DNA of 64,000 nucleotides from Cetorhinus maximus (lineage: Eukaryota). Under the pieces are notes generated by a model, which saw nothing but the letters and a program-made list of their open reading frames with translations, was not told where the DNA came from and searched no databases. Positions 9,201-60,564 of the stretch are shown here, one piece after another. The DNA lies in the NCBI RefSeq assembly GCF_964194155.1, contig NC_135902.1, positions 30,442,001 through 30,506,000 of the forward strand. The letters run 5' to 3'. The position numbers were made by a program, and so were the translations under genes. The number at the start of each line of letters is the position of its first letter. Position 1 is the first letter of the stretch.

Positions 9201-12200
9201 CAGGGAAGGAGGGCTGGGGGAAGAAATGTCCAAAAAGAGCAGCAAGAAGTATTAGTAAGTTCACAGATTTATATGTATTACAACATAAACCAATAAGCAT
9301 ACATTAAAAGTTTCACCTCCACGTGATTGGCACTTGGATGCATAATCCCATATTTAAATAGAAAACATGAGAGGTGAAAAACTCCCAGCCTTGAAATATC
9401 TCTACAATGCACACATTTATTCATCTAAGTAGAGTTCAGTAATGCTGTGCTCTAGTTTGTAAAGTTAATTTTTAGTAAATACCTAAATTGTAAGAGAGCC
9501 CAAAATATACCACTGTTTCTTCCAATAGTGTTTTCATCGGAGTTCACTGTCAAACAGTTGCCTTGTGCCGTCCATATCACTGAAAAGAAATAAGGATCAG
9601 AAATGTTCAAGCATTGGAACAATCATCTCTATCACACAATACCCCTTTCCCCGTCTCAAGCAAGCAAAGGAGATGCTACATCTTCACTTTTACCTCCTTC
9701 CTTCTCACTGACCTAGGCCTCAATCACTCCTTCCAGGTGAAACAGCAATTTACTTGTACTCCTTTCAATTTAATATACTGTATTCTCTGCTCATGATGCA
9801 ATCTTCTCTACGTCAGTGACACTAAACACAGATTGGGTGATCACTTTACGAAGCATACCCATTCAGTTCGCAAGCGTGGCCCTGATCTTCCAGTCACCTG
9901 TCATTTTGATTTTCAGCTCCATTCCCACTCTGACCTTGCTGTCCTTGGCCTTGGCCTCCTAGACTGTTACAAGCTCAATGTAACAGTGAGGAACAGTGTT
10001 TCGATTAGGCACTTTACAGTCTGCCAGACATAATACCGAGTTGAACAAGTTGAGATCGTAATTTCTGCTCCCTTTTTTTGTGTTTCTTTTTCATTGTAAT
10101 TCCCAACATGGATCAGAAGTCCCCTCTGTGCATGGGCATGGTTTACAGGGCAGCAGGGATCCCCGCGCTTCGAGATGCTTTGGAGACTTGGACAAGCTAT
10201 AGCAGGCATCTCAAAGCACTGGAGAATAACCATCAGTGGTGCCTTTGCAAGATCCTCCAAATTCGGGGGCAAGAAAAATGATCTAAAAATAGTGCCCTCT
10301 CCCAAGCCAACTTGCCCAGCATCGAGGCACTAATCACTCAAGACCAGTTCCAATGGACAGACATGTTGTCCACATGCCTGCCACCAAACTTCCAAATCAA
10401 CTGCTCTACTCGGAACTTGGTCATGACAGGAGACTCCCAGGAGGACAGTGAAAACGCTTTAGGGATGTCCTCAAAGCATCCCTAAAGAGGTCAAAGATAC
10501 CCATTGGCTCATGGAACGCCTTGGCTTGTGAGCAACCAAAATGGAGAAGGCATATTCAGGAAGGCATCAAATGCATTGAGGTTCTTTGTTGGGAACGTGC
10601 AGAAGTGAAGCTGAGAGGTTGGAGAGAGCGCACAAACCTCCAAACAACCTATCTACCCAACACTTCAAGTACCACCTGTCCTGTGGCAGAATCTGCAGAT
10701 TGCATGTTGGACCTATAAGCCATCTCAGAATCCATCAAACATGAGTGGAAGCAAGTCATCCTTGATCCCAAGGGACTGCCTAAGAAAGAGAAGAATAGCC
10801 ATGGGGAGAGTTTAACAATATCAAAACAGCAATTACACACTGTGCCACTGAAGCCAAACAGTCACTGGCTTCGATGTCACTGACACTAACTGTCCATGGG
10901 CGGGAAGTTCACTCCCTGCAGCTGCAGCATCAACAAGTGTAGCCTTGTTTGTTTTGGGATGGCAGCTGTTGGTAATGATCCTGCATTTCCCCATTAACAA
11001 CTTCTGCAGACATCTTTTGTTTCTGTATTTGTCTCAGTACTATCCCACTTCTATCATGCACTCTCTCTTGTCATTTAATCTCTGTCCTCACAGATCTTTC
11101 TCTTTTCTTCTTTGCCTCTCCTCCCCACAACCAGTGCCTCCTTTCCCTGCCTCTGTACTTGCTTAATACAGAAAAGACTGGAAATACTCAAGTCAGGCAG
11201 CACCCTATGGGCATAGAAACAGAGTTAACATTTCAGGTCAATGACCTTTCATCAGAACTGGGGAAAGTTAGAAATGTAGTAGATTTTAAGCAGATGAAAT
11301 GGCAGGGGGGTGCGCATAGAACAAAAGGGAAGGTCTGTGATAGGATGAAGGACAGGAAAGATTAAATGACAAAAGAGTTGGTGGGTCAGGGCCAAAGTAA
11401 GTGATAATGGGACAAACAAAGAAACAAATTATGTGTCTAGAGGAGGTATGAATGGCAGAATGAAGAATGGTTGCTGTTGAAGAGCAAAAACAAGGGAAAA
11501 ACAAGAGTAAAACCAAAACATGCAAAGAAAATGGGGGCCAGAGGTTACAGTCTGAAACTGTTGAACTTGTTGAGCTTGGAAAGCTGTAAAGCGTCTAATC
11601 TAAAAAATGAGGTGCTGTTCCTCGAACTTATGTTGAACTTCATTTGAAATTTGCATTAAGCCGAGGACAGAGGTCAGAGTGAGAGCAAGGTAGGGACTTA
11701 AACTGACAGGTGACCTGAAGCTCGGGGTTATGCTTGCTGACTGAAAAAAGGCGCTCCACAAAGCGGTCACCCAATCTGTATTTGGCTTACCCAATGAAAT
11801 AGAAATGGGTTGGCAGAAATACACATGCTGACTCCAAAGTACACTTTTCTTTCTATGTTTTGCTTTTGCTCGTATTTTCCTGCTATTCTGCAGCTGTTCA
11901 CCATTCACATCTCCTCAAGACACTTCTCCCATTAGCATTCCCTTTGGAACTGTACCACCAACTCTTTTGACATTTAATCTCTCCTGTCACCCAGACCTTC
12001 CCTTTTGTTCGTGAAAACCCTTCCCCATTTCACCTGCTTAAAAACTGAATACATTTCAAACTATTTCCAGCTCTGATGAAAGGTAATCAACTGCAATGAC
12101 AACTCTGTTTCTCTGTTCACAGATGCTGCCAGACTTGCTATGTATTTTCAGGATATTGTTTTTATTATTGTAACAACCATCTTAGGCCAGTTTAGTAAAC

Positions 12201-15200
12201 TATTCCAGTGATCATAGTTTATGGGTTACTGGAATGTATGTACTAACTAATTGTTGAAGATCTTAAGTGGAAATCTTACAAAATGTTGTTCAGGTATTTC
12301 TGCAAATTAACATAGAGCACTTTCAGATTGACATACATGTGGAATACTCATGTGTTAGGGGGTCAAGATACAGCAATCTGCATAATTAGCTTTACATTGC
12401 AACAGTTGACATTTATTAATCAGGACTGAGTGTCGGCAATCTGAACATTTAAGAGAATTGGGTGGTGGGAGTCCAGTAGAGGAGTACATGTCAATGCACT
12501 CAGAGTAACCTTGAAGTATTTTTTTTTAATTCATTCAAGATTTGAATTACAACTATATTTCATACAAACTTCAGATCAATATTGTAGTAATTGTAGGGAA
12601 GATTTCCTCTGTGACCGACAGAGCAAACTCTTAACCTAGTAATGAAGAGCTGGTTTACAATTATTCCATTGGTACAGGGAGGAAATCTTCCACTTTTGTA
12701 TTTAGTTTCCTTTTATCAAAGAAAAATATTGCACTTTTTTTTTCAGGCCACATGGGTCAGGCAAATCAAGATCCACTGCTTCAAGGCTCTAAACTATATG
12801 GCTCAAGTCAACTGCTGGAAGCTGAGAGAGAACAGTCCAGTAACCACTCCCTCAGACTTTCCTTCGCTTTCAAAAACTGCTCAACCTTTGGGGGAAATTA
12901 AACCAATGTCCAACCAAATCACTTGTACCAAACATAGATTCCATGTATTGTACCACTGATATGTTTTGAAATATTACATTTGGTTTTACTTTCATCATCT
13001 TTGTTATGATTACTATTTCTCAGTTGAAAAGTCAAATGCACGCAACATCATCATCCTTGGACGATTAAGTTTTCCAGAGTCACCCGAGTAATCCATTTTG
13101 TCCGCCCCAAAAGTAGGGCTGCAATAGGAACCTTGATACTGGGGCATTCAGCAATTCAACAGCAAAAGTACAGTTGCAAGCAATGAAGCTTCCAGATATC
13201 CACAAATTAAGTTGTAAGGAAAGAATAAGAAAACTGGTAAAATTTGCTGTTTAATTAAAAACAAACTACAAAAAGTGAGTGATCTAACTAAGGTTAAGGT
13301 TACAAATGGAACTGACCAGGCAAATTGCTCTTTATGGTGAAGACTTCAAATACCAAAAGGACACAAATAAAAATTTGGAAGTTAAGGAGTTCAAAAAAGA
13401 AATAGGTGAAACATTTCACCCAACAGACTTAATTTGAGGATGCTGCCAAAAATATGAAAGCAAAATGAACAATTTGTTCAGGAATAAAATGTCAAAATTC
13501 ACAGGAATTACAATTGTCAATGAAGGAAGAGAAAATAACAGATTTTACCTGTAGCTGCAGTAACTTCAAAGTGTGAGAACAGGGAGGATCATGTGGCTTT
13601 AATGAGGATACTTAGAACAAAGCATTTAAAACATAGACAAAATTTGATTGTTTTGTCCCTCTGAAAGATGATCAATGAGCACTGTGGATAGATACCTGAA
13701 GCTTGCTACTGCCTATTGAACCATGAATCACCATCTCTAGAGTGAAAGGAAAAAATAACTCGACAGAAGGAGGAAAAATGTCACATCCACATCAGTTGAA
13801 AACAACTACTAAGATGATTAAGTCAAATCGACCCAATCCAAAAAAATCCAAATGGAATCTCTACTTAGCTTTCGTCTATCATGAGGCAAAATGCTCATGC
13901 CCGACTTAGTTCACAGTTTGGATGAAACTAATTTAAGAATGTAATACAAATAGTACGACTAGAAAACTTCTCACACGTTATGGAATTTTAATCATTATTT
14001 TCTCATCCTAAAAAGAAAACATTCGGTTAACAAATCAAATTTCATTAGCATAGATCAGATCCTCACTAAAAGCTTTTCTCCTCAGGTCTTATGCACGTGG
14101 CTTAGCACAGCAGAACGAAAACTCACCTGCAGCTGCTATTCCAATGACGACAGAAGACAAGTAAAATGACCAAGTGAGTGGCTCAATGAAAACTGCAGCG
14201 TAGGCACTGAAAAAAAGACAATTTTGACTAAATATAAATGTACCCCAATTTAACTCAGTAAATTATAATCCCTCTATTATAGTCAAGATTTTGTGAAAAA
14301 TACAAGGACTCCTCCATGGAACATTGAAATAGGAAATCATCCTTTCACTGAGTACTGATGAACTCAGTGTATTTCATACAAAAGCTGAAAATAAGCTGTT
14401 TTTAAAAAAAAATCATATTTATCATTTTATGTTAAATTATGCAAAGGAATGAAATGCATTTAATTTCATGGTGAATACTGCCAAGTAATTTGGACAATAT
14501 TCAGCTTGGGGAAACTTCTCATACCACAAGTGTTCACATACAGATACTGCAAATTATGATAGAAACAGAAAATTCTCGACATACAATGTAACATCTTGCT
14601 AATCTTCATAGATTTCTTTTTCCTTTGATCAGTTTTGTTACAATCCCCACAGAGACAGATAACTTTTTAAAAGAGATGAATTTCCAAAATGACCATTGGA
14701 AATAACCAAAGGACAAGATTTCATCCTTTAAGACTTCTATTGCAACAAATAAACCTAAATCAAACTTACTTAACAGGCAACTAATACATCGAACAAAAGA
14801 AGAGGTGCTTTTGCATTAACTATCTAAAGCAATCGAGATGAGTCTTACAACCCCTTTCTGTGCAATGAACTTCTAGCAGATGAGTAACATTACAAGAACA
14901 AGTCTAATGTTACTCCCAACTCTCCAGTTGGCTCATTTCTCCCCGCGCAAGGCTGCAACTTCCAGTGTTCTTTGAACGTCAGCCCAAGTTTTCCAGGCCC
15001 AACTTCCACCAGCAATGCCCATCTCAGGGACTCCTTGTTCCTAAATCTCCAAAAGACCCGTCTGTTCTGTTCCCTTCCTTTCAAACAGGAAATGGATTCT
15101 TGCAAGTATTCTGCTCCTCTATAGCGGGTAGTTGCTTTCTCTCTCTCTCTCTCCTCCCGTGTGTCTCACCAAGCAGCTGTCCCTTTATACTGTGAGCCAC

Positions 15201-18200
15201 TGCAGAAATATGTGAAGACCGTTTCCTGATTTTGACAGATTTCTACATACAAACATAGGAACATACGAATTAGGGGCAGGGGTAGGCCACTTGGCCCTTC
15301 AAGCCTGCTCCGCCATTCAATAAGATCATGGCTGATATGATTTTAACTTGAACTATACATACTTGCCTCCCCCCGATAACCTTTCATCCCCGTGCTCATT
15401 AAGAATCTATCTACCTCTGCCTTTAAATTATTCAGATTCTGCCTCCACTTCCTTTTTAGGAAGAGAATTCCAAAGACTTACAAACCTCAAATTTTTTTCC
15501 CATCTGTCTTAAACGAGCAACCCTCTATTTTTAAACAGTGAGCCCTAGTTCTAGATTTTCCCACAAGAGGAAACATCCTTTCCACATCCACCCTGTCAAG
15601 ACCCCTCAGGATCTTGTATGCTTCAATCAAGTCACCTCTTTCTCTTCTAAACTCCAGCATATACAAATCCTAGCCTGTCCAACGTTTCCTCATAAGACAA
15701 TCTGCCCATTCCTGGTATTAGTCTAGCAAACCTTCTCTGAACTGTTTCTAACACATTCACATCCTTCCTTAAATAAAGAAGGCCAGTACTGCACACAGTA
15801 CTCTAGATGTGGTCTCACCAATGCCCCGTGTAACTGAAGCATAACCGCCCTACTCTTGTATTCAATTTCCCTCGCAATAAACAATAACATTCTATTAGCT
15901 TTCCTAATTACTTGCTGTACCCGCATTCTATGCTTCTGTTCGAGTTCATCCCCATAACAACCAGGCCACGTAGGTCTGTCTTGGAGTGGAGGTGTTTAGT
16001 AAAACTCAACCCCCCTTTTCAGAACATTGTTTCACCTTAAGTTAAAGGAGACATTTTAAAACATAACCATCTTGTAAAGTCCAGTGTTTGTAACAGTGTA
16101 TACCAAACTAATTTTGCCTTTTGTTCTTTCCTCCCACATTTCCTTGCCTTAGTTATAAACGGTTATATCGCTAAGTACTTCAGCTCTGACAAAGGATCAT
16201 TAATCTGAAACGCTAAATCTACTTTTCTCTCCCCCAATGCTGCCAGACCTGCTGTGCATTTCCAGCATTTTCCATTTCTTTCTTGGATTTCCAGTATTCA
16301 CAGTATGGTGTTTACCTAATAAGTTTTAAAATTGTTTTTATGTTGTGTAATGCAGGTTTTAGGTTTATCATTCCCTTACCAAGACAACTACACTATGCCT
16401 GCCATCCAGAAAGTCCTCTTAGGAGAACATAAGAAATAGGAGCAGGAGTAGAGAAGGTCATATGGCCCCTTGAGCCTGCTCTGCCTTTCGATAAGATAAT
16501 GGCTGAAGTTCCACATCAACTCCATTTTCAGACTACCACCATATTCTTTGATTCTCTTGGTGCCAAAAAACAATCAATCAGTCTTGAATGTACTCATCGA
16601 CTGAGCATCCACAGCCCTCTGCGGTAGAGAATTCCAAAGGTTCATAAAACTGAATGAAGAATTTTTTCATCTCAGGCCTAAATGGACAACGCCTCACCCT
16701 GAGGCTATGTACCAATTCTAGACTCTGCAGCCAAGGGAAGCAGCCTCTGAGTACCTGTGCTGTAATGCTCTCAATGTTGCCAGAGATGCTATATTTTGGT
16801 TGAGACTTTAAACCGAGGCCCCATCTGTTAACTCAGCTGAACGAAAAAGATCCCACGGCACCAGTTGAAGAAGAACAAGGGAGTAGTCACCAATGTCCTG
16901 TCCTGGCCAACATTTATCCCTCAATCAACATCACAAAAAAAAGACCATCTGTTCATTATAATATTGCTGTTTGTGGGCACTGTGATTCATGTACAATATT
17001 TAGTAACCCTTAGAAAAAATTTTTGCTTTTCCATTCTTCCTACCAAAGTGGATAATTTTACACTTCCCACCTCCTTATCCAAATCACTCAACCAGTCTTT
17101 ATCTTCTTGCTGTCTCTTTGTGCCCTCCTCATAGCTTACATTCCCTTGTGGCTTTGTTGTGAAGTACCTAAAGGACACTCGACAAAGAGTCAACTGTAGG
17201 TAGTTCTTCATTTAGTACAAGCGTGTACACATGGCCCTTTCAGAATGCTCTAAAAGGCACTTTGAAGTTACAAAATTTCTGTTGGTTAGATATACCATCT
17301 TTGGGATAAACCATTATTAATTCACAATGTTCTCATCTTGTATGTCGAATCGTTAGATCCTTAATTACAAATGAGTTTACAACATAAACGTGGAATGACC
17401 TGTTCATCACCTCCGCAATTCCGGAGGAATTCGTAAAACAGTCACAGAATGACCTGACCTTTAGCACAAATGATGTTCACAGTTCATTCCAAAACAAACT
17501 TTGCTTATCTATCCTGATATTTTGCTGCTGTGCCAAGTCATCTGCATATCTCTACTTGACCCCGAGGTTAAGCAATCCAGTTTATTGCAGTAAAATTCGT
17601 GACCATTCATCAACTTATTTTATCCTGATCCAAAGGTCATATTCCTTTAGCTTTATCATGAACTGACCCATAGGTTGGCATTAGTTTCCGGGCGTGGCCA
17701 AAAGGTCATATTCATTCTATTTTTTTTTAAACTGCAGACACTTTTAAGACTTATCCAAACAACTTGTCCAAGCCTAGGTAATCACATGATGCATCCTGAT
17801 ATGCCTCTTCAGCTTTATATTGGCAATAAACTTGGGTGTGTTACACTTGGTCCCCTCATCTAAGTCATTGACATAGATGGCAAATAGTTGAGGTCTAAGC
17901 AATGGTCTTTGCAGCACTCCCTTAGTTACACCCTGCTATCCTGAAAATTACCCTTTTATTCTTGCGTTGCATTCTGTCCATTCACCAATCTTCAATCACT
18001 GCTGATATATGATAGTTTTTCACATAGATAGCACTGTAGTAACTCGCCAAGCCTCCTTCAACAGGACTTTCCAGCATGGGAGTGTTTTAGAAACCAAAGG
18101 GCTACCAAAAAGTTAATAAAAAAGGGAAAACATAGAATATAAGAGCAAACTAGCCAGAAATATAAAAGCTCTTACAATCTGTTTTCATAAGTTATAAAAA

Positions 18201-21200
18201 GGAAGAGAGTAGCTAAAGTAAACGTTGGTCCCTTAGAAGCAGAGACTGGAGAAATTATCATGGGGAATGAGGAAATGGCCTAGGTGTTGAACAAATAATT
18301 TGTCTGTCTTCACAGTAGAAGAGACAAGTTCCGTACCAGAAATAAACGGTAACCTTGGGGCAAAAAAGAGTGAGGAAATTAGGAAAGTGCATATCAGCAG
18401 AGATAAATTACTCAAGAAACTTGAAGGGCTAAAATCCAACCTGATGGCCTATAACCTGGGGTTCTAAAAGGGAGTTGCAGAGATAGTGAATATACTAGCT
18501 ATGATTTTCCAAAATTCCTTAGATTCGGCAATGGTTTCAGTAGATTGTAAGTTGGCAAACGTCACATCACTTTTCAAGGAAGGAGGGTGAGAGAAAACAG
18601 TGAACTGCAGGCCAGTTAGTCGAACAGCAGTTGTTGGGAAAATGCTGGAATCTATCATTAACGAAATCTTAACAATGCACTTAGAAAAGCATAGTATGAT
18701 TAGAACAAGTCATCGTGGTTTTACTAAAGGGAAATCCTGTTTGACAGATTTAAGAGTTTTTTGAGGATGTAACTTGTAGAATAGATAAAGGGAACCAGTA
18801 CATGTAGTATACCTGGATTTCCAAAAGGCATTCAATAAGGTGCCACACAAAAGATTAATAGGCAAAATGAGGGCTCATGGAGTTGGGGGTAATATATTAG
18901 CATGGGTAGAGGATTGGTTAAAGGACGGAAAACAGAGAGTGGGCATAAACAGGGCTTTTTCAAGTTGGTAGGCAGTGAATAGTGGAGTGCCGCAAGGATC
19001 AGTGCTGGGGCCTCAGCTATTTATAATCTATATTACTGAATTAGATGAAGACATAGAGAGTAATGTACCTAAGTTTGCTGATGATACCAAGCTAGGTGGA
19101 AAGGTAAGCTGTGTGACAGAGAAACTGCAAAGAGATATAGACAGGTTAAGTGAGTGAGCAACAAGATGGCAGATATAGGGAAGTGTGAAGTTATTCACTT
19201 AGTACTAAGAATAAAAAAAACAGAATATTTGGTGGTGGTGTTCCCATGTGTCTGCTGCCCCTGTCCTTCTATTGGTAGAAGTCCTGGGTTTGAAGCAAAA
19301 GAACACAAGAAATAGGAGCAGGAGTAAATGAATGGTGCAGCAGGCTCAATGGGTCATGTGGTTTACTCCTGTTCCTATTTCTTGTGTTCTTTTGCTCCAA
19401 ACCCAGGACCTCTACCAATAGAAGGACAGGGGCAGCAGACACATGGGAACACCACCATCATTTCTTTTACAAGATGTGGGCATCAGGGTAGTCCAGCATT
19501 TATTGCCCATCCCTAATTCCGCTTGAGGTGGTGGTGAACCTATTGCTGCAGTCCATTTGGTATAGGTACAGCTACAGTGCTGTTGGGAAGGGAGTTCCAG
19601 GATTTTGATGCAGCAACAGTGAAGTTCTTGGGAGATAGATCAATGATGCATTTAAGCTATAGCAGGACAGAAAGCCAATATCTCCCTCTAACAGATGACC
19701 TGACAATGAACAATGAAAATAGCACACCAAGGGAAGAATGAATGCTAACACTGGAAAGCCTCAATTCCATAAATTTGAAGCCGTTTTATTATTAGGTTGG
19801 AACTGCTGCAGTGGATGTGGTGTAGGTACAACCACAGTGCTGTTGGGAAGGGGGTAACCCGGATTTTGACCCAGTGAGTGAAGGAACGACAATATAGTTC
19901 CAGGTCAGGATGGCGTGTGGCTTGGGGGGGAGCTTGCAGGTGGTGATGTTCCCATGTGTCTGCTGCCCTTGTCCTTCTAGGTGGTAGAGGTTGCGGGTTT
20001 GGAATGTGTTGTCAAAGCCGCTTTGGTGAGTTGCTCCAGTGCATCTTGTAGATGGTACACACTGCTGACACTGTGCGTCAGTGGTGGAGGGAGTGAATAT
20101 TTAAGGTGGTGGATGGGGTGCCAATCAAGCAAGCTTCTCGAGTGTTGTTGGAGCTGCCCTCATCCACTCGTGGCTTGTCAGATACTGAAGCAGTCTGTAC
20201 ACCCATCCAGGCAAGTGGAGAGTATTTCATCACACTCGTGACTTGTACCTTGTAGACGTTGCAGTCTTTGGGGAGTCAGGAGGCAAGTTACTCACTGCAG
20301 AATTCCCAACCTCTGACCTGCTCTTGTAGCCACAGTATTTATATGGCTGGTCCAGTTCAGTTTCTGGTCAATGGTAACCTCCAGGATGTTGATAAAGGGG
20401 AATCCAGTGATGATAATGCCATTGGATGTCATGGGAAGATGGTGAGATTCTCCCATGTTGGAGATGATCATTGCCTGGTACTTATGTGGCATGAATGTCA
20501 CTTGCCACTTATCAGCCCAAGCTTGAATGTTGTCCAGGTCTTGCTGCATATTGACACAGACTGCTTCAGTATCTGAGGAGTCACGAATGGTGCTGAACAT
20601 GGTGCAATCATCATCAAACATCCCCACTTTTGGACCTTATGATGAAGAAAAAGTCATTAGTGAAGCAGATGATGATGATTGGGTCAAGAATACTACCCTG
20701 AAGAACTTCTGCAGCAATGCCCTGGGACTGAGAGGACTGACCTCCAACAACCACAACCATCTTCCTTTGTGCTTGGTATAACTCCAACCAGTAGGAGCTG
20801 TTCCCTCCGATTTCCATTGACTTCAGTATTGCTAGGGCTCTTTGATGCCACACTCGGTCAAATGCTGCCTTGATATCACATCCCCACATCCCATGAAACA
20901 ATATATATAAAAAAACTACCCCCAATTTTATAAGGAAAGATATACTGGCATTGGAGGTAGTCCAGAGAAGGTTGATTCTGAGTATGGAGGGATTTTCTTG
21001 TGAGGAGAGGTTGAGTAGGTTGGGCCTGTACTCACTGGAGTTTAGAAGAATGAGAGGGGACCTTATTGAAACATATAAGATTCTTAGGGGGCTTGACAGA
21101 GTAGATGCTGAGAGGTTGTTTCCCCTTGTGGGAGAGTCTAGGACCAGAGGGCATAATCTCAGAGTAAGGGGGCACCCATTTAAAACAGAGATGAGGAGGA

Positions 21201-28233: not shown

Positions 28234-28356
28234 TGTTAAATGTCCAGCTTGTCAGGCTGCTTTTCTAGGTAATAATGTATCTTAAATCTCACTTTTGTCA
28301 ATAACAATCTTCAAAACAATACTCATCCTAATTCCAGGCATTGGATTGCCATAAGG

Positions 28357-29822: not shown

Positions 29823-29859
29823 CTATGCTCTGACATATGTTCACAACCACAAACAACCG

Positions 29860-30412
29860 CCTCCCACCGGAAACGGCAAACGCATGCGCTATAATCCAAA
29901 TGAACCTTAGCATTCGAAATTTTCCGGTCAAGCCGATTTCGATCGGTGTGCAAAAGTTGTATGTAACACTATGGCGAGCGATTTCCCGTTCGACAATGAA
30001 CGCCATGTTTTACGTGGTTGACATGCAGAAACGTGTTTTCAAGAATAACCGGCAGTTTGACCTGAAGATAAAAACAAAATACTGCTTTAGTTTGACCTGA
30101 AGGGATGAGAACTACAATTCCCAGGAGGCGCCGCGGCTTGAAGGATTTATTTCCTGAGTCGACTATGAAAAAATATTTACAGAAATTAAGAGGGTTGATT
30201 GTAAAATGAAGGGTGTACGGTACAGATTTTTTTATAGTTGATAAAAATGTAATTTGTTCAGTTTTTTCTCCAAGTGAGGGTGTGTTTCCGGGTCAGGCGG
30301 GGCGCCATCTTGTGATTGTCACTGGATTAGGCGGTGGTTTGTGGCGGGTTTCACACTGATCCAGTGTCGACATATTTCCCCTTTAACCTGCCGAAACCAA
30401 GGCCGATTAGCG
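29860..30412. promoter_or_regulatory. Bidirectional promoter MFSD11/SRSF2
   Basis: CpG-enriched. ETS CCGGAA motifs (~29868, ~29922, ~30286), NRF1-like CGCATGCGC (29881-29889), ZNF143/SBS ACTACAATTCCCAG (30111-30124), GC box plus YY1 CGCCATCTT (~30296-30311). Lies between divergent genes. Confidence 0.8.
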
Positions 30413-40900: not shown

Positions 40901-41904
40901 CTTATAACCTGGGTGGAAGAAGCAACTAAAGTATCCAGTTGAAGGAAGAGTATAAATTTTCTGCATAGAACATTGTGTTTTGAATGCAAACTAATTTTTT
41001 TCAATCTGTACTGTTGTTGTGACTACTCAATATTGTGAAACATTGTTAAAACATAGTACTATAGGGAAGGTTGCCGGGGGCGGGGGGGGACAACGACACG
41101 TTAAGAGGTATATGCTTTTTTTTCTGCAGTTAAAGTATAGTCTAACTTTTTTGTTTGAGCAGTGGCTTCCATTTTGAGCAAATATTTTGACATGCCCTAA
41201 CATTAATGTGAAATTTAACTGTGAAAATAAAGTTGCACAAGACAAATAGAATAAAAACAGAAACTGCTGGCAATGCAGTCTAGCAGCATCTGTGGAGAGA
41301 GATACAGTTAATGTTTCAGGTCTGTGACAGTTCATCAGAACTGAAAAAAGTTAGACATGTACATTTTTGAGCAAGTGAAAGTGCTATTCCAGGATGCATT
41401 GTATAAATTTGGGTACTGGAAGATTAACAAAAGAAATCGGGGAAAAATTACTGAGTTTCCAAATTTATCCAAGATTCTTATTAATTTCGACTACTTTAAT
41501 AATGATTACTGGATCAGAGAGTATGAAAGCCTCTCCAAAAACTCCCAAAATTGAGTTTGGAATGACTGAAGTTCAATTATAGCTACATTTAGTACTGTAA
41601 AAGGGATGCTTCTAAAATACTTAGTGCATTGTTAAATGTCTGGACATTAACTAGCTACTTTTAAATTGTATTTGTTAAAAGCGTTCATGAAACAATCTTC
41701 AGACAGGAAATTACCAAATTGATAATTGTAATCGCAATGCACTGATCCATAATTCACTTCTTCTAATCATCACTAGACCAGGGACAAGCTGATCCTTGAA
41801 GAAGTATTGCTCTTCTCTCCGACAGGATTTCCGTATCTCTCTTTTACCTTGTTCACCTTCATTGCTTTCCATCTCTCTCCTGGTGTTTGACAAGGTGTTT
41901 ACTC

Positions 41905-42200
41905 CTTAGATAATATCACCACCTTCAACACCTCTTTGTCCTTTTGCCTATGACATCTTTTGGCTATCTCCATCTATCACTGGCCCTCTATCCAGCTCTA
42001 CCTGTCCCACCCCCGCCCACCTTAAATCAGGTATATTTCACCTCTTTTCTATTTTTACTTAGTTCCGTTGAAGAGTCATACAGACTTGAAACGTTAACTG
42101 TGTTCCTTTCCGTAGAAGCTGCCAGACCTGCTGAGTTTTTCCAAGTATTTTTATTTTTGTTTTGGATTGCCAGCATCCGCAGTTTTTTGCTTTTATCTTG
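41905..42200 (+). mobile_element. Non-autonomous Penelope-derived element (pLTR 3' part)
   Basis: Homologous to 48380-48760 and 54495-54840; hammerhead-like motif 42060-42100. Confidence 0.75.
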
Positions 42201-49900: not shown

Positions 49901-52900
49901 TTTAAAAGTATTGCAGCTTTTTATTTACAACTGAATCAAATCTTTTGCAAATGTCAATTAACCTAACGGTGAGCAAGAGTTGACAAAAAATGCAAGAGTA
50001 ATAGGACTAATCTTTACACTATCAAAACTTCAATAAAAGGTAAAATTGTACTTTCAATTTTAAAAATTCTGATGTAACCTTGCTTGAATGTTGGATAAAG
50101 ATGTTTCAAAAATTCAACTGGCACACTTAAAAAAAATGCCAACAGGTTATACTTATTTTTATTCTTTTTGCAAGACTGGCTTAGAATTTGTCAGGTTTGA
50201 TAACTTTTTGGTAGAAACTTAACCTAATTTTCCTTATGTAGTTGTCATTTTTAAAAGGGATTTCAGTCTTGATCAGCAGCGAGCACACCTATCCTCTTAT
50301 GAAGCAAAATGCACATGGAATTCTCTAACAAATGTATCCTAATTTATCCCAGACGTTTCCACCTATTTTCTGTCTGTTTTTGAAATACTACTTTTATTAT
50401 CAAAATCAAGTTAATTTATTTTACCTCTAAAATGGTCTTTCCTCTTACTGTATTTCTGTAAAACCATACGTATTGTGCTAGAACCACAGCACATGGCCAA
50501 ATGTACATACCATATTGGGGATCCAGTACCTGAGGAAGCAACAACAACTTGCATTTAAATAGCACCTTTAACATGGTAAAACATCCCAAGACACTTCACA
50601 GGAACTTAATCAGACAAAAATTAATGAACCATAAAGAAAAACATTTTGATGACAGGTTATCAACTTGAAATGCTAACTCTCTCTCTTCACAGGTACTGCC
50701 TAACTTGCTGAGTATTTGCAGGTTGGAGACCAGATGTACCCCAGAAAATGCACTACAGGACCCCTTGGAAGTTCCAATGCAAGGACTTCGTGGGAATTGC
50801 CCAGGAAGTTTGAACTCCCTGCTCTCTGGGACACTCCAAAAAACTGGGTTAGAGTCGGGAACTTCAGACAGTTCCGACTTACTTATCTGGGTAGTTGCCC
50901 AAGAAATGTTAGAATAAAACCCAGTCTCAATCACCTGGGTAACTATACAACTGACCTTCCCCAATCACTCACACTGAAGCCCCTGACCAGGCCTGGGTAG
51001 ACCCCCGCCCCCATGACCCCTCCTGACCCAACTACACACACACCCATCTGCCACCCTACCCCCAACCCAACTACCACCCTACCTAGTTGCCCACCTGCCA
51101 CCCTATCACCCTTGCCATCCTACCTAGCTGCACCCAATCACCCCTATCATCCTACCCCCTAATTTACATTCTCTCCATAGCTTTTCAAAGAAGCTTTGGG
51201 ACATTTAAATATTTTACTTACAGAATATGACAACTAGTGCCATAAAAAGGGTGCGTGGTTTCTGCACTGATTCTCAAAGGTAACTGTATTTTTTTTGTCT
51301 GATCAGGGTCAGAAATAGGGGTTCAGACCCTAGATGCAAGATTCAGGCCTAGGACTGGTGATCAAACATTTGGTCAAAGACCTAGTTTTTAAACAGCATC
51401 TTAGGTGGAGAGGCACAGATGTTTGTAGAGGGAGTTCCAGAGCTTAGGGCCTGAACAGTTGAAGCAACAGCTGCCAACGAGGGCCAGAGAATTGGGGATG
51501 CATGAGGCCAGATTTGGAGAAGGGAGTTTTCGGAGAATTTTGGGAAGTTACAGAAATACAGATGGAATCGATGGCTAGGCAATGGGTCAGTGATCTCCAA
51601 GAATAACTGTAGGGACAGGAAATAAAGCCATTGCAGGAGATTCTCTGGATAGGTAAGCTCCAACTAGACTGGTAAGCTAGGAACCAGGTGAGAGTAGTCC
51701 CACTTCACTGGGCAATGGAGGAGAGACATTGAAGGAGAAACAGTGCGGTCAAACGTGTCAAAGACTGAAGATAGGTCAAGAGGAATTGTGCATCAGTCAC
51801 TGCGGATGTAAGTTGTAGCTTTAGTTAAGACATTTCAGTAGAGAATCAGGTGATGGGGTCTACTCGGGTCTGGTCAGGGGCTTCAGTGAGAGTGATTGGG
51901 GAAGGTCAGCTGTATAGTTACCCAAGTGATATAGAGTAGGTTTTATTCTGTTTAACATTTCCTGGGCAGCCATTAGAGCTGTGGCAATGTCAGAAACTAG
52001 ATTGGAGAGATTCAAACATGACGTTATGGGAGGTGCCATCATGTTCAAGAGCTTTGAAAAGACATGTTGGAGATAGGGGAGAAGACAAAGGATCGTTCTT
52101 CTCAATTCTGTTTATGGGATCTTGTATGAAAATTGTCTTTACTTACACAAACAGTGCTTCAAAACAAATGAACTATCTTGGCCAGCCGTGATTTAATATT
52201 AACATTCTCACCTGAGTCAGAAAATTATTGGATTCAAACCCAACTCTAGAAACTTGACAATATTGACAGTACTGAGGTGCTGCATTATCTCTGACGCTGT
52301 CTTTCAGGTGAGATGTTAAAACCAAATCCCCATCTACCCTCTCAGGGTATAGAAGATCCCACAGCATTCTTTAATGAGGAGGGGAGAGGACAGAATATTA
52401 AGTCCAAGCAGGTTGGTTCAGAAAGTCACATTACTGTATCCTTCACTTGTTTTTCTTCATTGAACTATCTTTCACACGTAGCAACAAGTTTTACAGTACG
52501 TCCATCAATGAATAGCAGCAATTCATAATTAGTCCAGGATTCAATGGTGACTTTCAAAAGGAAATTAGATAAATTCTTGGAGGAAGAAAAATTGCAGGAA
52601 CATGGGGAAAGAGCAAGGGAGTGGGACTAACTGAATTGCTCTTCAAAAGAGTTGGTGCAGATTCGATGGGTTGAATGACCTTTTGTAGGGTAGTATTCCA
52701 TGATTCATTCCCCAGTTCTTGTTTATTATACAGATTGCTTAACTTTAAAAAAAAATTCATGGAATTAATTATACAAAATCACAAATAAAATGTAGATGAT
52801 ATCCAGGTGGGATTGTATTACCTTTTTGGATCAATATGTAACCTAAATTAGGAACTAAACACATTTTAAATAATAATACAGGAATGCTAAATGATTCATT

Positions 52901-55900
52901 AAGCAATACAGTACAATTTTATTTTCATTTGTGAAGCTGACTGGAATCTACTTAAGGAAACAAAAATCAGATTACATGGCCAGACATTTGGTTTCCTTCG
53001 TATGTATTGCTGATAGAAATGACGTGGGAATAGCCTTATGATTTGATCTGTTGCAGGAATATGTTATTCAGTAACGTTATAACATTGCATCTTTCAGGAA
53101 ATTCTGTTGTCAAAATAAAATAATTTTATTTATCCAATTGCCAGTTTTGATGTTGCACTCTCATAAATCAACAAAAAAAACAGCATTCACTCAGAGGAAC
53201 AATATGTCGTACGATGATTCTAAAATGGGAAAGCTATGTAATGGGCTCCTTTGATGGATCAGTGGTAACTGCATCCTATGATACAAAACCAGTAAAATAA
53301 CGAGGAGAGGAAGAAGTTGAGAAATGGTTCTCAAATAAAGTCAGCATTCTTTCAGGGAATTTATTTTCCCCTCCCCAACCGCATATTGCCCAGAATGAAT
53401 GTTTTTGTCTTTTTTCCTGTCTGAAAACACAAACCAAGCAGCGTGCCCATCTCCACTTCCCATCATCCATCCATCTGCGACATCCTCCCTTACCATAGAA
53501 AAACAGATCAAAGAAATCTCATACACAAATCCACATCCAGTCACTCTATGCCACAGGATGTTTGAGCACCATCTAGTCAACTCTCAAATGTTTAAGATTG
53601 CCACCTTTGTGAACTCTAAAACTGAAGAATAGCTTATTGCACCAGTTTCAATGATGCACTTCATTAATGAGACAGACAAGGACACATTCTAATAAAGAAA
53701 GCCAATGATTACAGTTGTGACAGCCAATTACATGTTTCACAATACAGTCAACTTTAATATTTTTGAAGATGAAGGCACCAGGAACACAGATAATTCAATG
53801 CTGCTAAATAAAATTAACTAAAAGGGAAAAATGAAAACTTCACCAAACTTAAAATCATTGAAGTGTTAGCTCAGAATATGTGGTTTATGACTTTTTTTTA
53901 AAGAGACAGCATTTAACTGATAGACATGGGTAAGAATTAAGTTACTGATGAAGGTAAAATGCTCTAAATTCTTATGTTCAGGTACAGTGCTGAAGCTTCC
54001 TCAGCACAAGCAAAAATACTTCATTGGGGTGGATATCATCAGCAGCTGCTCCTTTTGTTAGGGTCATTGGAAATTGCAGATTATAGCAAAAACTGACTTC
54101 ATAATTTCACAAAATTGGAATATTATTGTGAACAAAAACAGAATTACCTGGAAAAACTCAGCAGGTCTGGCAGCATCGGCAGAGAAGAAATCAGTTAACG
54201 TTTTGAGCCTTCATGGCCCTTCGGCAGAACTGAAGCATAGTTAGGAGAAAGGAGAAATATAAACTGGTTTAAGGTGGGGGGGGGGGGGGGGGGGCGCGAA
54301 GAGAGAAGTTGAGGGTGTGGTGATTGTGGAGATAAGCAAGCCGTGATAGGAGCAGATAATCAAAAGATGTCACAGACAAAAGGATCAAAGAGGTGTTGAA
54401 GGTGGTGATATTTGTCTAAGAAAAGTGCTAATTAAGAATGGAAGACAGGATACTAGAGCTGTACTTTGCTTTACCCCACTAGAGCTGTACTTTGAGTATC
54501 CTGTCTTCCATTCTTAATTAGCACTTTTCTTAGACAAATATCACCACCTTCAACACCTCTTTGATCCTTTTGTCTGTGACATCTTTTGATTATCTGCTCC
54601 TATCACGGCTTGCTTATCTCCACAATCACCACACCCTCAACTTCTCTCTTCCCCCCCCGCTCCCCCCCCACCTTAAACCAGTTTATATTTCTCCTTTCTC
54701 CTAACTATGCTTCAGTTCTGCCGAAGGGCCATGAAGGCTCGAAACGTTAACTGATTTCTTCTCCGCCGATGCTGCCAGACCTGCTGAGTTTTTCCAGGTA
54801 ATTCTGTTTTTGTTTTGGATTTCCAGCATCCGCAGTAGCTTTCAGCATATTATTGTGAATATTGTATTAGCAATCTCCATTGCTAAATTTCATTAACAGC
54901 CAACTTTATCAATTCACACAGTAACATTCTTCTCCTTCAACATTCTCCGCTAACAGACATTTACCTCTCCCCCTTCCCTACAGTATAAGCCTCCCTATCC
55001 CCCGAATTTGTACACAGTAAGTAGTCAGTGCTGCTCTGGAGATCTGCTGCAAAACTGCTGGGATTAAGAATTCTCACTTTCAGCACTGCTGTCTCAGGAA
55101 AATGCAATGCAACATGTTCACCACCAAGTCCCATCTGAGTTACACGACATCCTGATTTGGAAATATATAATGGTTCCTTCATTACACCAAGTCAAAACCC
55201 TGAAACTTCTTACCTAATGGTATTATGGGAACACTTACACCATATAGACTACAGCATTTAAGGGGGTAGCTCACCAACCACCTTCTCAGTGGCAATAAAT
55301 GCCAACCTTGCCAGAACCCAAGAATTATTAAGGAAATGGTGGAAGCCAGAAATAGCAGTAGTGAATAAGATCAGAAGCAAAGCAAGAACTCAACTGCAAT
55401 TAAGTTGCAATATTGAACTGAATTGCAATATTGGTCATAGGAATATACTTTAAATGAATTTGAAACTTTTAATTTACAAAGAGGAAACAACTTGTATTTA
55501 TATATCACCTTTCATAACTTCAAGATGTTCCAAAGTACTTCACAGCCGGAGAAGTATATTTGAACATATGAATTAGGAGCACGAGTAGACCACTCAGCAC
55601 TTTGAACCTGTTCTGCCATCCAATAAGATCATGGTTGATCCGATTGTAACCTCAACCCCACATTCCCGCCATCCCCGATAACCTTTCACCTCCTGCTCAT
55701 TAACAATCTATCTAGCTCTAGGTAATGACTGTTTTTAGCTTAGATACCATGCTAGTCAAAATTCAGGCAGCAAGGTCCCACAAACAGCAATGAAATAAAT
55801 GGCTGAAAATCTATTTTACTGAGTTGTTTGAGGGATAAATTTTGACCTGAACTCTCTTGCTCTTCTTCAAATAGTGCTATATGATCTTTCACCTCCTCAC

Positions 55901-57641
55901 GAGAGGGCAAATAGGGCTTTGATTTATTATTGCATACCAAAAATTAGACCTCTGACAATGCAGCTTTTGCTCAGTTTGAAATGCAGCCTAGATTAGGTGT
56001 TCAAATCTAGAATTGGGCTTGAACTTATGCCTTCCGATTTTTAAAAATTACTCTTGTGGCACGTGGGTGCCGCTGGCTAGGCCAGCATTTTTATTGCCTA
56101 TACCTTAGATTTAGAGGTAATAGTGCTAACACTCTGCCAAGATTAATATCTTGTCACATCTAAAAATTTCAAACATGCAGGTACAGCAAGCAATTAAGGC
56201 AGGAAATGGTATTTTGGCCTTTATTAGAAGAGAATTTGAGTATTGAAGTAAAGATATCTTACTGCAATCATATAGAGACTTGGTGAGACAACACTTGAGT
56301 AATGTGTGGAGTTTTGTTCTCCTTACCCAAGGAAAGATATACTTGCCATAGTAGTAATACAACAAAGATTCACCAGACTAATTCCTTGGATGGATGGATT
56401 TTCCTATGAGGAAAAATTAAATAGGCTGGGCTTTTATCGTTGAGAGTTTAGAAGAATGAGAGGTGATTTCATTCAAACATACACAAGTCTTACAGGGCTC
56501 GATAGGGTAGATGAAGGAAGGATGTGTCCCCTGGCTAAGGGCCCTAGAGCCAGGGGGCCACAGTCTCAGAATATGGGGCAGGCCATTTAGGACTGAGAAG
56601 AGGAGAAATTTCTTCACTCAGAGGATGGTGAATCTTTGGAATTCTCTGTCTCAGAGGGCTGTGGAAGTTCAATTGTTGAGTATGTTCAAGACTGGTTTTG
56701 ATAGATTTCTCCATATTAAAAACATCAAGGGATGTGGGGATAGTGTGAGAAAATGGTACTGAAGTAGAAAAATCGCGATCTCATTGAATGGCGGAGCAGG
56801 CTCAAAGGTCTACTCCTGCCCCTATTTCTTATGTAAAACATGTAATGCAACAAAACACCGATGGCAGTGACGGTTCAGGGATGAAAATCTACTTTTATAT
56901 AGTATCTTTCACAGGACATTCTAAAGCATTTTATAACCAACGAATTGTTTTTCTAACACGAGTAGCATGTTGACAAGGGCAGACGCCAAATTGCACAAAC
57001 GGCATGAGATATATGGCCAATTGGTCCGTTTTGGGGGAACTTAAACTAGGAGACCACGCCTGTCTTCAAGAATGGATCGTTTTACATCCATTAAAACAGG
57101 GGGGGGGGGCGGGGGACACCGTGGTGCCTTGGCTTAACATCTCATCTGAAAGAGTCTCAACGATGCAGCAACTTCCCCGGGACAACAATGAATTCAACCC
57201 TCGGTCCCTCGACTGTGTCTACATACACTGCAGCTCTCAACACTCTCCCTGCTCAATCAGAAAGGTCACTGCCAACATTTCCCAGCTCCAAAACAAGCCC
57301 ACTGGAGGGGTTTGGGGGAAACACAGGTGGTGAACGGCACATGTCGAGAGGCAGTTTGAATTGGCGCTGACAGCAGCGGGCAGCCCTTCCATTGGTTTAT
57401 TTTCCCAAAGGCTGGCTCAAGGCCTCCAATGAGGGGGGGAGAAAAGGCGCTCGAATTAACCGAGAAAACCACGATTTGAATTGGTCTTTCTCTTATCTAA
57501 GCAACCGACACAGCGCTTTAATCTCATTTCTACAAGAAGCCAGTCAGCCACCTCGGGGACAGAGACCTCCAGCCGCTCAGCACCATCTCTCGGCCGCTCG
57601 TCCACAAACACGAAGCGTTTCGCCGGCGGCAGGCCGCTCAT
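43757..57641 (-). CDS. METTL23: Methyltransferase-like 23 (seven-beta-strand methyltransferase), 5 exons, 699 nt, 232 aa
   Basis: Exons 57552-57641, 50425-50529, 49575-49812, 45634-45718, 43757-43937 in phase; motifs YGMYIWPCAVVLAQY, motif I LEIGAGASLPG, and GSDVFY (DxxY). Confidence 0.92.
45634..45718 (-). CDS. METTL23: METTL23 exon 4
   Basis: DFEDILTTVFYLMQKNPHVLFWTTYQERS; donor gtgagt; 85 nt. Confidence 0.94.
48355..48762 (+). mobile_element. Non-autonomous Penelope-derived element with hammerhead motif
   Basis: Highly similar to 54478-54814; hammerhead motif 48660-48700. Confidence 0.8.
48660..48700 (+). ncRNA. Minimal hammerhead ribozyme motif, CUGCCGA core variant
   Basis: cagtt-CUGCCGA-a-GGGUC augaa GACCC-GAAA-cguu-aacug. 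Confidence 0.55.
49575..49812 (-). CDS. METTL23: METTL23 exon 3
   Basis: IGAGASLPGIVAAKCGGRVILSD...IDIILGSDVFYEPK; 238 nt. Confidence 0.95.
50425..50529 (-). CDS. METTL23: METTL23 exon 2
   Basis: VLDPQYGMYIWPCAVVLAQYVWFYRNTVRGKTILE; 105 nt; donor gtaaaa. Confidence 0.94.
54120..54859. mobile_element. Penelope-type insertion in inverted-pLTR configuration with 13-bp TSD
   Basis: Arms 54131-54454 and 54495-54814 are reverse complements; ATATTATTGTGAA at 54120-54132 and 54847-54859. Confidence 0.85.
54713..54753 (+). ncRNA. Minimal hammerhead ribozyme motif, CUGCCGA core variant
   Basis: cagtt-CUGCCGA-a-GGGCC augaa GGCUC-GAAA-cguu-aacug. Confidence 0.55.
56170..56835 (+). mobile_element. CR1 LINE 3' fragment
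   Basis: RGHSLRIWGRPFRTEKRRNFFTQRMVNLWNSL; tail. Confidence 0.88.
57552..57641 (-). CDS. METTL23: METTL23 coding exon 1
   Basis: MSGLPPAKRFVFVDERPRDGAERLEVSVPE; phase-0 donor GAG|gtggct (weak); lies in the CpG island. Confidence 0.75.
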
Positions 57642-58160
57642 GACGTCGGCGACATGAACTCTGACCTCGCCGACGTCCGCTGACGCAGGGGGAGGGGCGG
57701 GGCAGGGCGGGGGCGCGGCCTCGGCGCCGTAAAAGTGACTCAGAACCCCCAGATTTACCACCTAAAGATAAAAAAAATCAAATTACGGCGGATGCCGGGA
57801 ATCTGAAATGAAAACAAAAAAGCTGCTGCAAAAACCTCAAGCAGGTCGGTGGAGGGAAAGACAAGAGGGCAAAGCTCCGAGTCCGTATATGACTCTTCTT
57901 CGGAGCATTCAGATTCACCAATCGGGCGCAGCTTCCGCCGCGGGCCGGCCACTCGGTGACGGGCGGGCGGGCCGGACTTCCTCTCTGCGGTTTGATTGAC
58001 AGGTCGGTGCGGGGAGAGGGTGAAGATTCTGGAAAGCTTTCCCTCCCTCCCCCCTCCCCCTCTCCCCTTCGACAGCCTGTAACCCAGACCCCGGGGTGGG
58101 GGCAGCGGCTGGCGGAGCCGGCTTTAATAGCGCAGGAGGCAGTGGTTCTGAGTTTAGGAA
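57642..58160. promoter_or_regulatory. Bidirectional CpG-island promoter METTL23/JMJD6
   Basis: 519 bp between divergent ATGs; CRE-like TGACG motifs (57641, 57681), tandem GC boxes / G-runs 57688-57713, CCAAT near 57918. Confidence 0.8.
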
Positions 58161-58289: not shown

Positions 58290-60564
58290 GTAAGGAGCGT
58301 CAGGGACCGGGGCCGCCTCACAGCCCCGGGGTCCCACTCACACTCACCCAGCACGTCCCGCACGTACACACTCTCGGCACGGCGCCATCGAGCTGTCCCT
58401 CAGCCCCTAGTCAGAGAGCGGGAATGGTGGGGTGGGGGGGGACCTACACAAGGTGGCCTGCTGGTGGCTTTGATTCTCCCAATCCCTCCCCCTCCCGGCA
58501 TTGGGAAGAGGTGTTGCTTTGGAGGGAACGGCCGGGTTGGGTTCACTTGGTGAGGGAGTGGGGGGGGGAGATTGATTTGGCGGGCACTGAGGGTGTAAAT
58601 CTGGGCTGGAAGCAGGCCGGAGGGGAGGGAAGGGGGGGCACTTTGGACAGGGCAGTTCTGGAGGATGAGATGGGCTGCGGTTACTCGGCAGTCGGTCCAA
58701 GGCAGAATTCCCGTTGTGGTCACCAGGGAGCCGCCGCCGCAGTGGTTATTATTGGAGACAGCTCTTGGAGAAAGAGTTTTTGAGATGTGGGACTTGAGGC
58801 TGTATCCCCTCCTGGGAAGAAACATAAAATTAAGAGCAAAATGCTCCGGATGTTGGAAATCTGAAATAGAGTGCTGGAAATACCCATCAGGTCTTAAAAG
58901 AGTCATATTGGACTCAAAACGTGAACTCATTTCTCCACACACGCTGCCAGACCTGCTGAGTATTTCCAGCACTTTCTGTTGTTCTTAGGGAAGAAATAAA
59001 GTTTGGGTTCTTTCTGGGGAAACAAAGGAAAAACTGGAGTTGGTTGGGCCCAGGTCTTGTGGAGAAAATGAGTCTGGAAAAATAACCTTAAATGGAAGGC
59101 AGTTTCAGTAGGGAAGCAAAGGAATCAGGGTTGTGGCCTCACCAGGGATACAGTAGCATCCAATCCCTAGTGACAAACTTCAGTGTTCAATTACAACATG
59201 ATTACTTTTGTGAGTGAGTTTATGATTTTCACATTAATGGCTGCTGACTACGTGGGTTAACCCTCCCTTTTCAAAATCAGTGATTTCTCTTGTCGCACTG
59301 AGTCTGATACTACCTTATAATTTGCTACATAGATGTAGATATTTGCTGTAAAGGGAGCATTGTTTGTTTGTGTTACTGCAAGTCAAAAGTCAACACACTG
59401 AACTGCCTTGTGTATAGTGTGGCAGCGGTAATAACCTACTTATTCAGTGTCTATTTTGATGCTTATTTTAATCTATCCAATAAAAGAGCTGACTTATTGG
59501 CTAGTGTCGTTTTACACCATGTGACTTTTCAGCCATACTTAAAAATAGTCATGACTCAGAAGATCCTTGGAATGGATGGAATTAATTCAGTATCACAGAA
59601 TCATGCTTTCTCAACCGTCAGTTTGTCCAAATGTACACAAAATCTTTAAACTGGAGAACTAATTTGGCAATAAGTATTAAAATAAAGCTCAACAGTCTGT
59701 TCAGTTCAAATTCCATTCTTAAGACTCGAGACTGTTACTTCTGCCTTCTGCTATTACAGCCCCCTTCTTGCCCTGTTCGTGCTTCCCAATGCTGATTGCT
59801 TCAGCTTTGCCGATTATAACCACTCTCCACACCTCTGTTCACTTGCAAACAAGGCCCTTGCCAGCTGTGACCATACTGTGAATAATGGCCTTGAAAGGAA
59901 CTTGGTGTCAATGCCTTGTCCCTTACTGAAGCCTTCCCAGGTCGCTATGCCTTCCACCACCACCCCTGCTGAAACCGTTGTCATCATTCTGATCAAATTC
60001 CTCTTTGCTCTGTCCAATTATTCCCTTGGCGCCTTCTCTTCCTTTTGAGCACTTTACTTTATTCTGTCTTTCTTGCCGGTGTTTTTAAATCCTCATTAGC
60101 TGCTGCCCACCAAAGCCTCCTTGTGAGTTTCACACTCACAGTCCCTCTTCCTTGATCCTTGCATTGAACAACTTCTCAGTCTTTGTGATTTGAACATCCA
60201 CCTTAACTCATCTTGCCCTCTCTTTGACCTCAGTGCCATCCTGCACTCCTTAAATATCTCAACTCAAATTTGAATCTTTTGTTGGGGGGATTCATCAGAT
60301 TCTCCGAGATTGACGTCAGAATTGTTCAGAACGTAGCGGATCTCACCGTCCTACCCGTGGCCCCCCTCAGACTTGCCATTTCACATGTCTACTTTTCCCA
60401 TTGGCTTGATCACAAGTAGGGTCATCTTTGAACTCTTCCTTGTGTCCTGCACCACTCATGTCCCCCTTCCAGTCCCACTTTCTTCTGCATGCATCCCTGG
60501 AAAAATCTCCCCCCAACTCACTTTTTACAGAACTTTCAAATAATTCTACAGAGGCTATAGAGCT

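Follow-up and report, generated by a model that had tools for sequence, protein, structure and literature searches.

The 64,000-nt window analyzed here (contig NC_135902.1 of the Cetorhinus maximus assembly GCF_964194155.1, positions 30,442,001–30,506,000 of the forward strand) contains a minus-strand UNC-93-family, MFSD11-like gene (176–28233) and a series of dispersed short repeats in which an initial annotation had recognized hammerhead ribozyme motifs derived from Penelope-like elements (PLEs). That annotation is for the most part correct. All 11 sites listed in it are pseudo-long terminal repeat (pLTR) ends of one high-copy Penelope-like retrotransposon lineage with a minimal hammerhead motif in its terminal repeat. 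A search profile assembled from 80 copies in the genome returned 15 matches in the window—all 11 listed sites, together with 33705–33785 (−), 45967–46043 (+), 57778–57907 (−), and 58836–58894 (−)—and 0 in the reversed control. Minimal hammerheads in PLE pLTRs have been published before; what is new is an ordered A6–U6–C6 ladder at core position 6, with later compensation in stem II. A literature search, outside which lay most subscription papers as well as Repbase and Dfam, found no report of cartilaginous-fish Neptune hammerheads, of A6U in Penelope elements, or of an A6–U6–C6 series.

In 970 kb of genomic regions sampled at round coordinates, the pLTR profile matched 94 times, or ~100 pLTR ends per Mb, and never when that DNA was reversed; scaled to the 3.99-Gb genome, this corresponds to roughly 390,000 fragments. 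Genome-wide searches with exact patterns that left stem II free returned 5,629 matches for the CUGAUGA core and 12,286 for CUGCCGA, and a CUGYUGA pattern returned 18,109, with 0 in each reversed control; the U6 and C6 forms together account for >30,000 exact motif matches, these counts not being relative copy numbers, since strictness differs between patterns and old copies fail exact matching. The PLE origin proposed in the initial annotation is borne out by the position of the motif relative to the coding region. Querying the genome with an endonuclease remnant from the window (9674–9961) recovered 65,756 candidates, of which 150 were scored; among 29 loci chosen by protein alone, with the remnant's own locus left out, 21 have a same-strand motif match 440–710 nt beyond the end of the endonuclease query. 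One 3.4-kb full-length element (L062) has motifs with C3 at 58 and 3350, and between them a reverse transcriptase (RT) plus GIY-YIG frame that begins ~175 nt downstream of the C3 of the first motif; the motif also lies ~0.4–0.5 kb downstream of the RT + GIY-YIG frame. A related 634-aa frame (L061) matched the Pfam models RVT_1 (E 2.3e-5) and GIY-YIG (E 0.052), both below curated cut-offs. Read directly, the genomic frames are single frames with what we take to be the DKG, RT, and endonuclease (EN) motifs and with GIY-YIG at the C-terminus; they also contain a C-X4-C-X2-C linker and a CxxC..H..H (CCHH) endonuclease motif.

The linker CX2-5CxxC and the CCHH motif by which the available part of Craig et al. 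(2021; PMC8557442) defines Neptune are both found in these frames, which share with Neptune-clade EN+ PLEs the RT, the C-X4-C-X2-C linker, and, at the C-terminus, a GIY-YIG that contains CxxC plus two His. The EN+ PLE layout is likewise present, with direct pLTRs (L062), an inverted truncated arm, and an optional tail, all shared with Neptune, and with target duplications of 8–15 bp. Nematis also has a linker zinc finger, and the definition given for it in the same source fits too; placement by motifs suggests that the carrier family probably belongs to the Neptune clade. In L062, the 5′ pLTR with its hammerhead, and the leader, are spanned by an open hydrophobic frame of ~110 codons; 2-nt indels between subfamilies argue against its retention and rule out coding constraint on the motif. 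A retrozyme interpretation was ruled out as well, there being no tandem units: non-LTR retrozymes, which share PLE-derived type I hammerheads and are reported from one chondrichthyan genome in the accessible part of the preprint (bioRxiv 10.64898/2026.07.22.740005), form head-to-tail tandem arrays, whereas the window copies are dispersed as solo or inverted, head-to-head stubs.

The motif closely resembles the minimal hammerhead ribozyme (min-HHR) that metazoan PLEs carry in their pLTRs (Cervera & De la Pena, 2014; PMC4209133). As described in the available sections of that paper, shared features include the type I layout, the CUGANGA core plus an extra base, a 5-bp stem II, the lack of a helix III loop, palindromic 15.2/16.2, and a short helix I; occurrence is shared as well, in both pLTRs ~3.3 kb apart, in inverted pairs 100–700 bp apart, and mostly as solo copies. 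The minimal type I layout and the palindromic helix III, which could form only in dimers, stand as annotated. Since copies are related, 219 were grouped by seeding into eight subfamilies (A, B, C, D, E1, E2, F, and G); the ACGU palindrome appears in 8/8 subfamily majorities, as do the extra A between 9 and 10.1, C–G at palindromic 15.2–16.2, and an NUH cut triplet. This triplet is GUU or GUC depending on subfamily, and the predicted cleavage after GUU applies to some subfamilies and not to those with GUC. The common layout attributed to about ten window copies was overstated; most cores are broken, and only the copy at 11223–11260 (−), a member of the oldest subfamily (A) with a CUGAUGA core and C3 at 11255, combines a canonical core with a 5-bp stem II (1 of the 11 listed). 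A scan against the curated hammerhead models of Rfam gave no match at E ≤ 10, as expected for motifs without helix III. Monomer folding was unexceptional (z −2.5 to 0.0 for seven copies) and is evidence neither way.

In an alignment of 11 window copies, which drops the truncated 45940 copy from the 11 listed sites and takes in the one near 57900, stem II is 92.6% paired with double-sided changes at 5/5 pairs, and stem I is 81.8% paired with 0 double changes; over both helices together, 3 of 500 shuffles reached the observed number of double-changed pairs, a control that ignores relatedness. At the level of subfamilies, stem II pairs in 40/40 positions across eight majorities up to 28% apart. 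Three independent double changes were found, at pairs 1 and 2 (A vs. B) and at pair 4 (in G). The change at pair 4 (U–A to C–G) followed A6C; among the 100 matches listed, one insertion has the U·G intermediate and none the C·A intermediate. Within subfamilies, 50 single changes break pairing and 54 keep it, so that inserted copies decay neutrally. All five arm pairs quoted as covariation in the initial annotation are present, and two of them are of post-insertion origin: GAGUC/GACUU (42060) reflects CpG loss from GACUC|G, and GGGUC/GACCC (48660), found in 1 of 219 copies and 0 of the 100 matches listed, is on account of that rarity a private change. The covariation is real, and thinner than had been claimed; selection on structure in the source elements agrees with the intact stem II of the majorities, while part of the apparent covariation is neutral decay.

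Core position 6 divides the subfamilies into A6 (A, B, and C), U6 (D, E1, and E2), and C6 (F and G). The CUGANGA core and GAAA are present in subfamilies A, B, and C and in the window copies at 11223 and 41306, whereas the A at position 6 that the minimal PLE hammerhead requires is absent from the young subfamilies D–G. This departs from the published min-HHRs, whose cores are all A6 in the available part of PMC4209133, where the descriptor demanded it; Table S1 and Fig. S3 of that source also include no cartilaginous fish. Median divergence from the subfamily majority, calculated from unbiased copies (n = 16, 27, 2, 8, 4, 2, 6, and 5 for A through G, with only 2 each for C and E2), is 0.22 in A, 0.16 in B, 0.07 in C, 0.055 in D, 0.05 in E1, 0.025 in E2, 0.01 in F, and 0.02 in G. 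Restricted to the tail columns, the comparison makes 40 A6 copies older than 25 U6/C6 copies (p 5e-7); U6 copies likewise exceed C6 copies in age (p 0.036). In a tree built from 42 long copies, with at most 6 per subfamily and none from A, for which no long copy was available, the 12 F + G (C6) rows group together as a single clade (95/88) lying inside the U6 rows (100/100); C, D, and E1 do not separate from one another. These sequence comparisons indicate that within one lineage position 6 changed from A first to U and then to C, that U6 and C6 copies are the youngest, and that stem II compensation continued. The non-canonical U6/C6 cores of the youngest subfamilies weaken the idea that cleavage itself was selected. 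Folding models predict that A6U would pair the core with the GAAAC box into a rod (pairing 0.82–0.91 vs. 0.07–0.44).

The 5′ ends of the copies cluster at helix I. Among 90 random copies, 28 end in a 13-nt zone around the helix I start, whereas the 17 nt above it account for 3 and the 20 nt below it for 9; in young families, ~20 of 100 among the matches listed start at −5 to −2 from C3, vs. 3 at −14 to −6 (counted by eye). Each of six short insertions flanked by 8–15-bp target duplications starts at −4 to −1, with 0–4 extra bases; no first exon common to these six and spliced to the AG ahead of the core was found, and splicing from host exons may occur. The hot spot fits YYANWYY, which we take to be the initiator consensus. 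Starts exactly at the cut site make up ~0.7% of 10,271 young copies and 0.7–0.9% of 15,239 old copies, percentages scaled from by-eye counts with unmutated native copies excluded (the first pattern letter falling on the native A) and with denominators counted separately. A cleavage footprint was sought in the old, canonical-core families and not seen: among 100 matches listed, 3–4 begin at the cut site, about as many as at neighboring positions. The ~20% of starts at the helix I edge, against ~0.7% at the cut site, suggests that templates were mostly uncut. In Anolis, uncut RNA is described as the main template (PMC11167929, available part), and the rarity of cut-site starts here agrees. Separately, 6 of ~11 young copies starting at the cut site (contigs C1–C4) are preceded by TT where the native bases are TC; target preference or fold-back priming is possible.

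We consider it fairly probable that the element RNA carries a hammerhead fold at its 5′ terminus that cuts weakly or not at all, the hairpin having been selected in source elements and the genomic fossils being inert. Transcription would likely start at the initiator-like helix I, placing the motif at the very 5′ end of the RNA. Reverse transcription would begin 100–135 nt downstream and run to the RNA 5′ end, which would give rise to the short stubs; cleavage, if it occurs, would require a pair of motifs joined via the ACGU palindrome, perhaps aided by an element protein. Copied templates were likely cut weakly if at all, and in the young lineage selection may have maintained the hairpin more than the catalytic rate. 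Poseidon of Anolis carolinensis offers a parallel in the accessible portion of Frangieh et al. (2024; PMC11167929): copies derive from uncut RNA, 3′ ends lie ~100–135 nt past the motif as internal initiation predicts, and the hammerhead cuts only with protein, is dispensable for insertion in vitro, and leaves no RNA-seq ends at the cut site. However, the Poseidon open reading frame (ORF) starts inside stem II and its core is canonical, while here C3 precedes the ATG by ~175 nt and the core has changed. More tentatively, the youngest lineage may have abandoned efficient self-cleavage through two changes, A6 to U6 and U6 to C6, with stem II still under selection, the hammerhead then serving mainly as a folded 5′-leader signal at the transcription start.

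Several observations weigh against a 5′-terminal fold that cuts weakly or not at all, and some of them favor a different possibility, rather unlikely in our estimation, that the motif is a working, selected ribozyme in all subfamilies, with U6 and C6 tolerated or tuning and with dimer- or protein-dependent cleavage removing the capped 5′ 36 nt or trimming tandem precursors. Ten other core positions (C3, U4, G5, G8, A9, G12–A15.1, and U16.1) are fixed in 8/8 majorities, as are an H at position 17, the ACGU palindrome, and the NUH triplet, which fits continued catalysis; 45 of 61 tail columns are likewise fixed, so the fixity of the core is weak evidence either way. In young GUC families, ~11 of 100 non-native listed rows start at the cut site, as compared with 3–5 at neighboring positions, and this small, 2–3-fold local excess could reflect real cleavage; set against it is the far greater share of starts at helix I. 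The Anolis motif cleaves when protein is present, as noted above, and the natural A6C hammerhead of phage Bcep176, with the same core change as here, cleaves slowly and prefers Mn2+ in the available portions of PMC3088659 and PMC7151607. That hammerhead is a single monomeric phage ribozyme of tested activity, whereas the shark motif is predicted to be of dimer type and is fixed, via U6, in >12,000 retrotransposon copies. According to both sources, A6C sharply reduces cleavage with Mg; in PMC7151607, it slowed a test hammerhead from 0.3 to 3.6e-6 per minute at 0.3 mM, with Mn activity spared. The rod predicted for A6U also speaks against a working ribozyme throughout, as does the near-equal invariance of the columns flanking the core. 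The start site can be read in two ways. In favor of a transcription start, 6 of 10 solo copies that begin at G are preceded by an additional G (expected 0.27, p 0.026), as are 2 of 3 that begin at A (not significant); this enrichment matches what a copied cap would give, in a count in which several A-family natives are misclassed as junctions. Boundaries of old copies are BLAST ends. The hot spot also resembles a 3′ splice site, with a branch-like CTAAC, pyrimidines, and AG, and in D. virilis Penelope an intron is described as ending at helix I (PMC4209133, PMC2377424, in part). Within the motif, one stem I pair is broken in subfamily B (C·A), and G10.1–C11.1, present in 7/8 majorities, is A–U in subfamily A, including the 11223 copy, a further difference from the min-HHRs in the available part of PMC4209133.

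Three double changes are also few events and could come from hairpin template switching, which is the basis of a second alternative: that the motif is the relic of a distant ancestral ribozyme, its stem persisting through hairpin-driven correction of DNA or cDNA and a few bottlenecks, without selection on RNA structure. The broken stem I in B, the fixation of two successive core changes, and the neutral decay of copies are all compatible with such a relic. It is nonetheless improbable given that stem II is paired at every position across such divergent majorities, that for pair 4 the wobble intermediate is present and the mismatch intermediate is not (among the matches listed), and that the same architecture is retained across animal PLEs in Fig. 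S3 of PMC4209133, as far as that source is available. Finally, the canonical core of 11223–11260 and its sense orientation in an intron might suggest co-option for cutting host pre-mRNA, which we regard as very improbable: a profile search found no other same-strand pLTR match from the exon with the ATG to the last one located, the copy is a monomer without helix III (monomers are described as inactive in vitro in the available part of PMC4209133), it has lost C15.2, and retention of the core by chance is seen in a few old copies (6 of 70 with core and stem). An effect of this copy on the host gene is unlikely; without a partner, it is likely inert.

The role of hammerheads in PLEs is still debated (PMC8557442, PMC11167929, in the parts available). 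Dated A6, U6, and C6 variants of one lineage, each amplified thousands-fold, make that role testable with seven short RNAs: should U6 and C6 RNAs fail to cut, spread in vivo would not depend on cleavage, and if they do cut, rare natural core variants would have been fixed at high copy. Should cleavage have been given up while stem II was kept, the subfamily series would amount to a natural experiment on the purpose of the motif. Descriptor searches that require CUGANGA would overlook the youngest copies.

Taken by themselves, the copies in the window are ordinary fossils. Genomic copies decay neutrally and are likely inert, the intronic one included. The 11223–11260 motif has a 4-bp stem I (cagtt/aactc) and C15.2 changed to U, with a predicted cut between 11227 and 11226. 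It belongs to a 5′-truncated PLE arm (11163–11843, −) that contains a GIY-YIG remnant (11843–11551), 3′ untranslated region (UTR), hammerhead, and tail; judged from the layout, the opposite arm at 11928–12169 (+; subfamily A, stem II and GAAA box broken) is probably its head-to-head partner, and no target duplication was found for the pair. The GIY-YIG remnant that the initial annotation placed at 9640–10010 and tied to these copies is real (9651–10057, +) and 61% identical in aa to a long ORF elsewhere in the genome (E 1.7e-30), yet it lies on the other strand and is a separate, old fragment, the 11223 copy having a remnant of its own. Pfam gave only a weak THUMP match to this 96-aa remnant, and its identity was set instead via genomic relatives; the stretch that follows it is presumably an unrelated long interspersed element (LINE)-like sequence.

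Stubs with damaged motifs account for many of the remaining copies, cores being broken or missing at 12070, 16185, 45940, 50645, and 58900. These include a short, old pLTR stub at 16177–16310 (+; G8A), an old stub at 50647–50723 (+; C3U with G8), a small head-to-head pair at 45902–46043 (minus arm with damaged core and without the cut site, plus arm tail only), and a head-to-head stub pair at 58836–58993, the plus arm of which keeps stem II (GAGUC/GACUC) without a CUGA box. A tail-only stub at 33705–33785 (−) and an old decayed copy of subfamily B in CpG-rich surroundings at 57778–57907 (−) were not in the earlier list; the latter lies inside a GC-rich, promoter-like CpG island (57001–58000; GC 0.55, CpG observed/expected 0.84), and its CpGs are mostly retained. 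The old subfamily A stub at 41241–41360 (−; motif 41306–41343) has a canonical core and a stem II with three pairs only. At 41794–42198 (+), a rearranged PLE piece joins an ORF start (41794–41903) to 3′ UTR, hammerhead, and tail; its motif (42060–42100) is of subfamily D, with A6U plus a private U4C, and the permuted junction may be the trace of a template jump or of an internal deletion. Younger copies include a pLTR fragment at 48353–48773 (+; motif 48660–48700) with a CUGCCGA (A6C) core and the private GGGUC/GACCC stem, and one young head-to-head insertion of subfamily G at 54120–54859. The arms of this insertion are 97–98% alike, with a longer tail on the right arm, and contain motifs at 54192–54232 (−; A6C with G12 lost) and 54713–54753 (+; A6C); a 13-bp target duplication bounds it (54120–54132 and 54847–54859). 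A head-to-head layout of this kind is described in PMC3846280.

Exons of the host gene were found at 28233–28138, ~23105–22997, 14206–14127, and 9579–9484 (96, 108 by Pfam match, 80, and ~97 nt, respectively); a second exon, demanded by phase between the first two of these, was not located. The 11223 copy is sense to this gene, as annotated, in the intron after the 80-nt exon, which becomes the fourth intron once the phase-required exon is counted. The name MFSD11 and the numbering as intron 4 are assumptions based on the exon sizes of human MFSD11, which these exons match. Four assembled contigs, guessed to be RNA, were compared with 8000–27900; the comparison was swamped by repeats, with ends and strand unreadable. 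In the 250 nt downstream of the motif (L062 minus strand 6200–5980, and all subfamily tails) there are at least five sites with a pyrimidine tract followed by AG, and with such 3′-splice-like sites in their tails the stubs could serve as cryptic acceptors in sense introns. A long CT-rich tandem array of 27–35-nt units (28350–29800) lies just upstream of the ATG exon, adjoined by a CpG-rich stretch (29001–31000). A second UNC-93-family gene, a paralog with similar exon-by-exon matches, occurs at contig C15:57834939–57850017. Within the window, 19230–19460 contains a near-perfect 99-nt inverted repeat (96%) of the end of another, non-PLE repeat.

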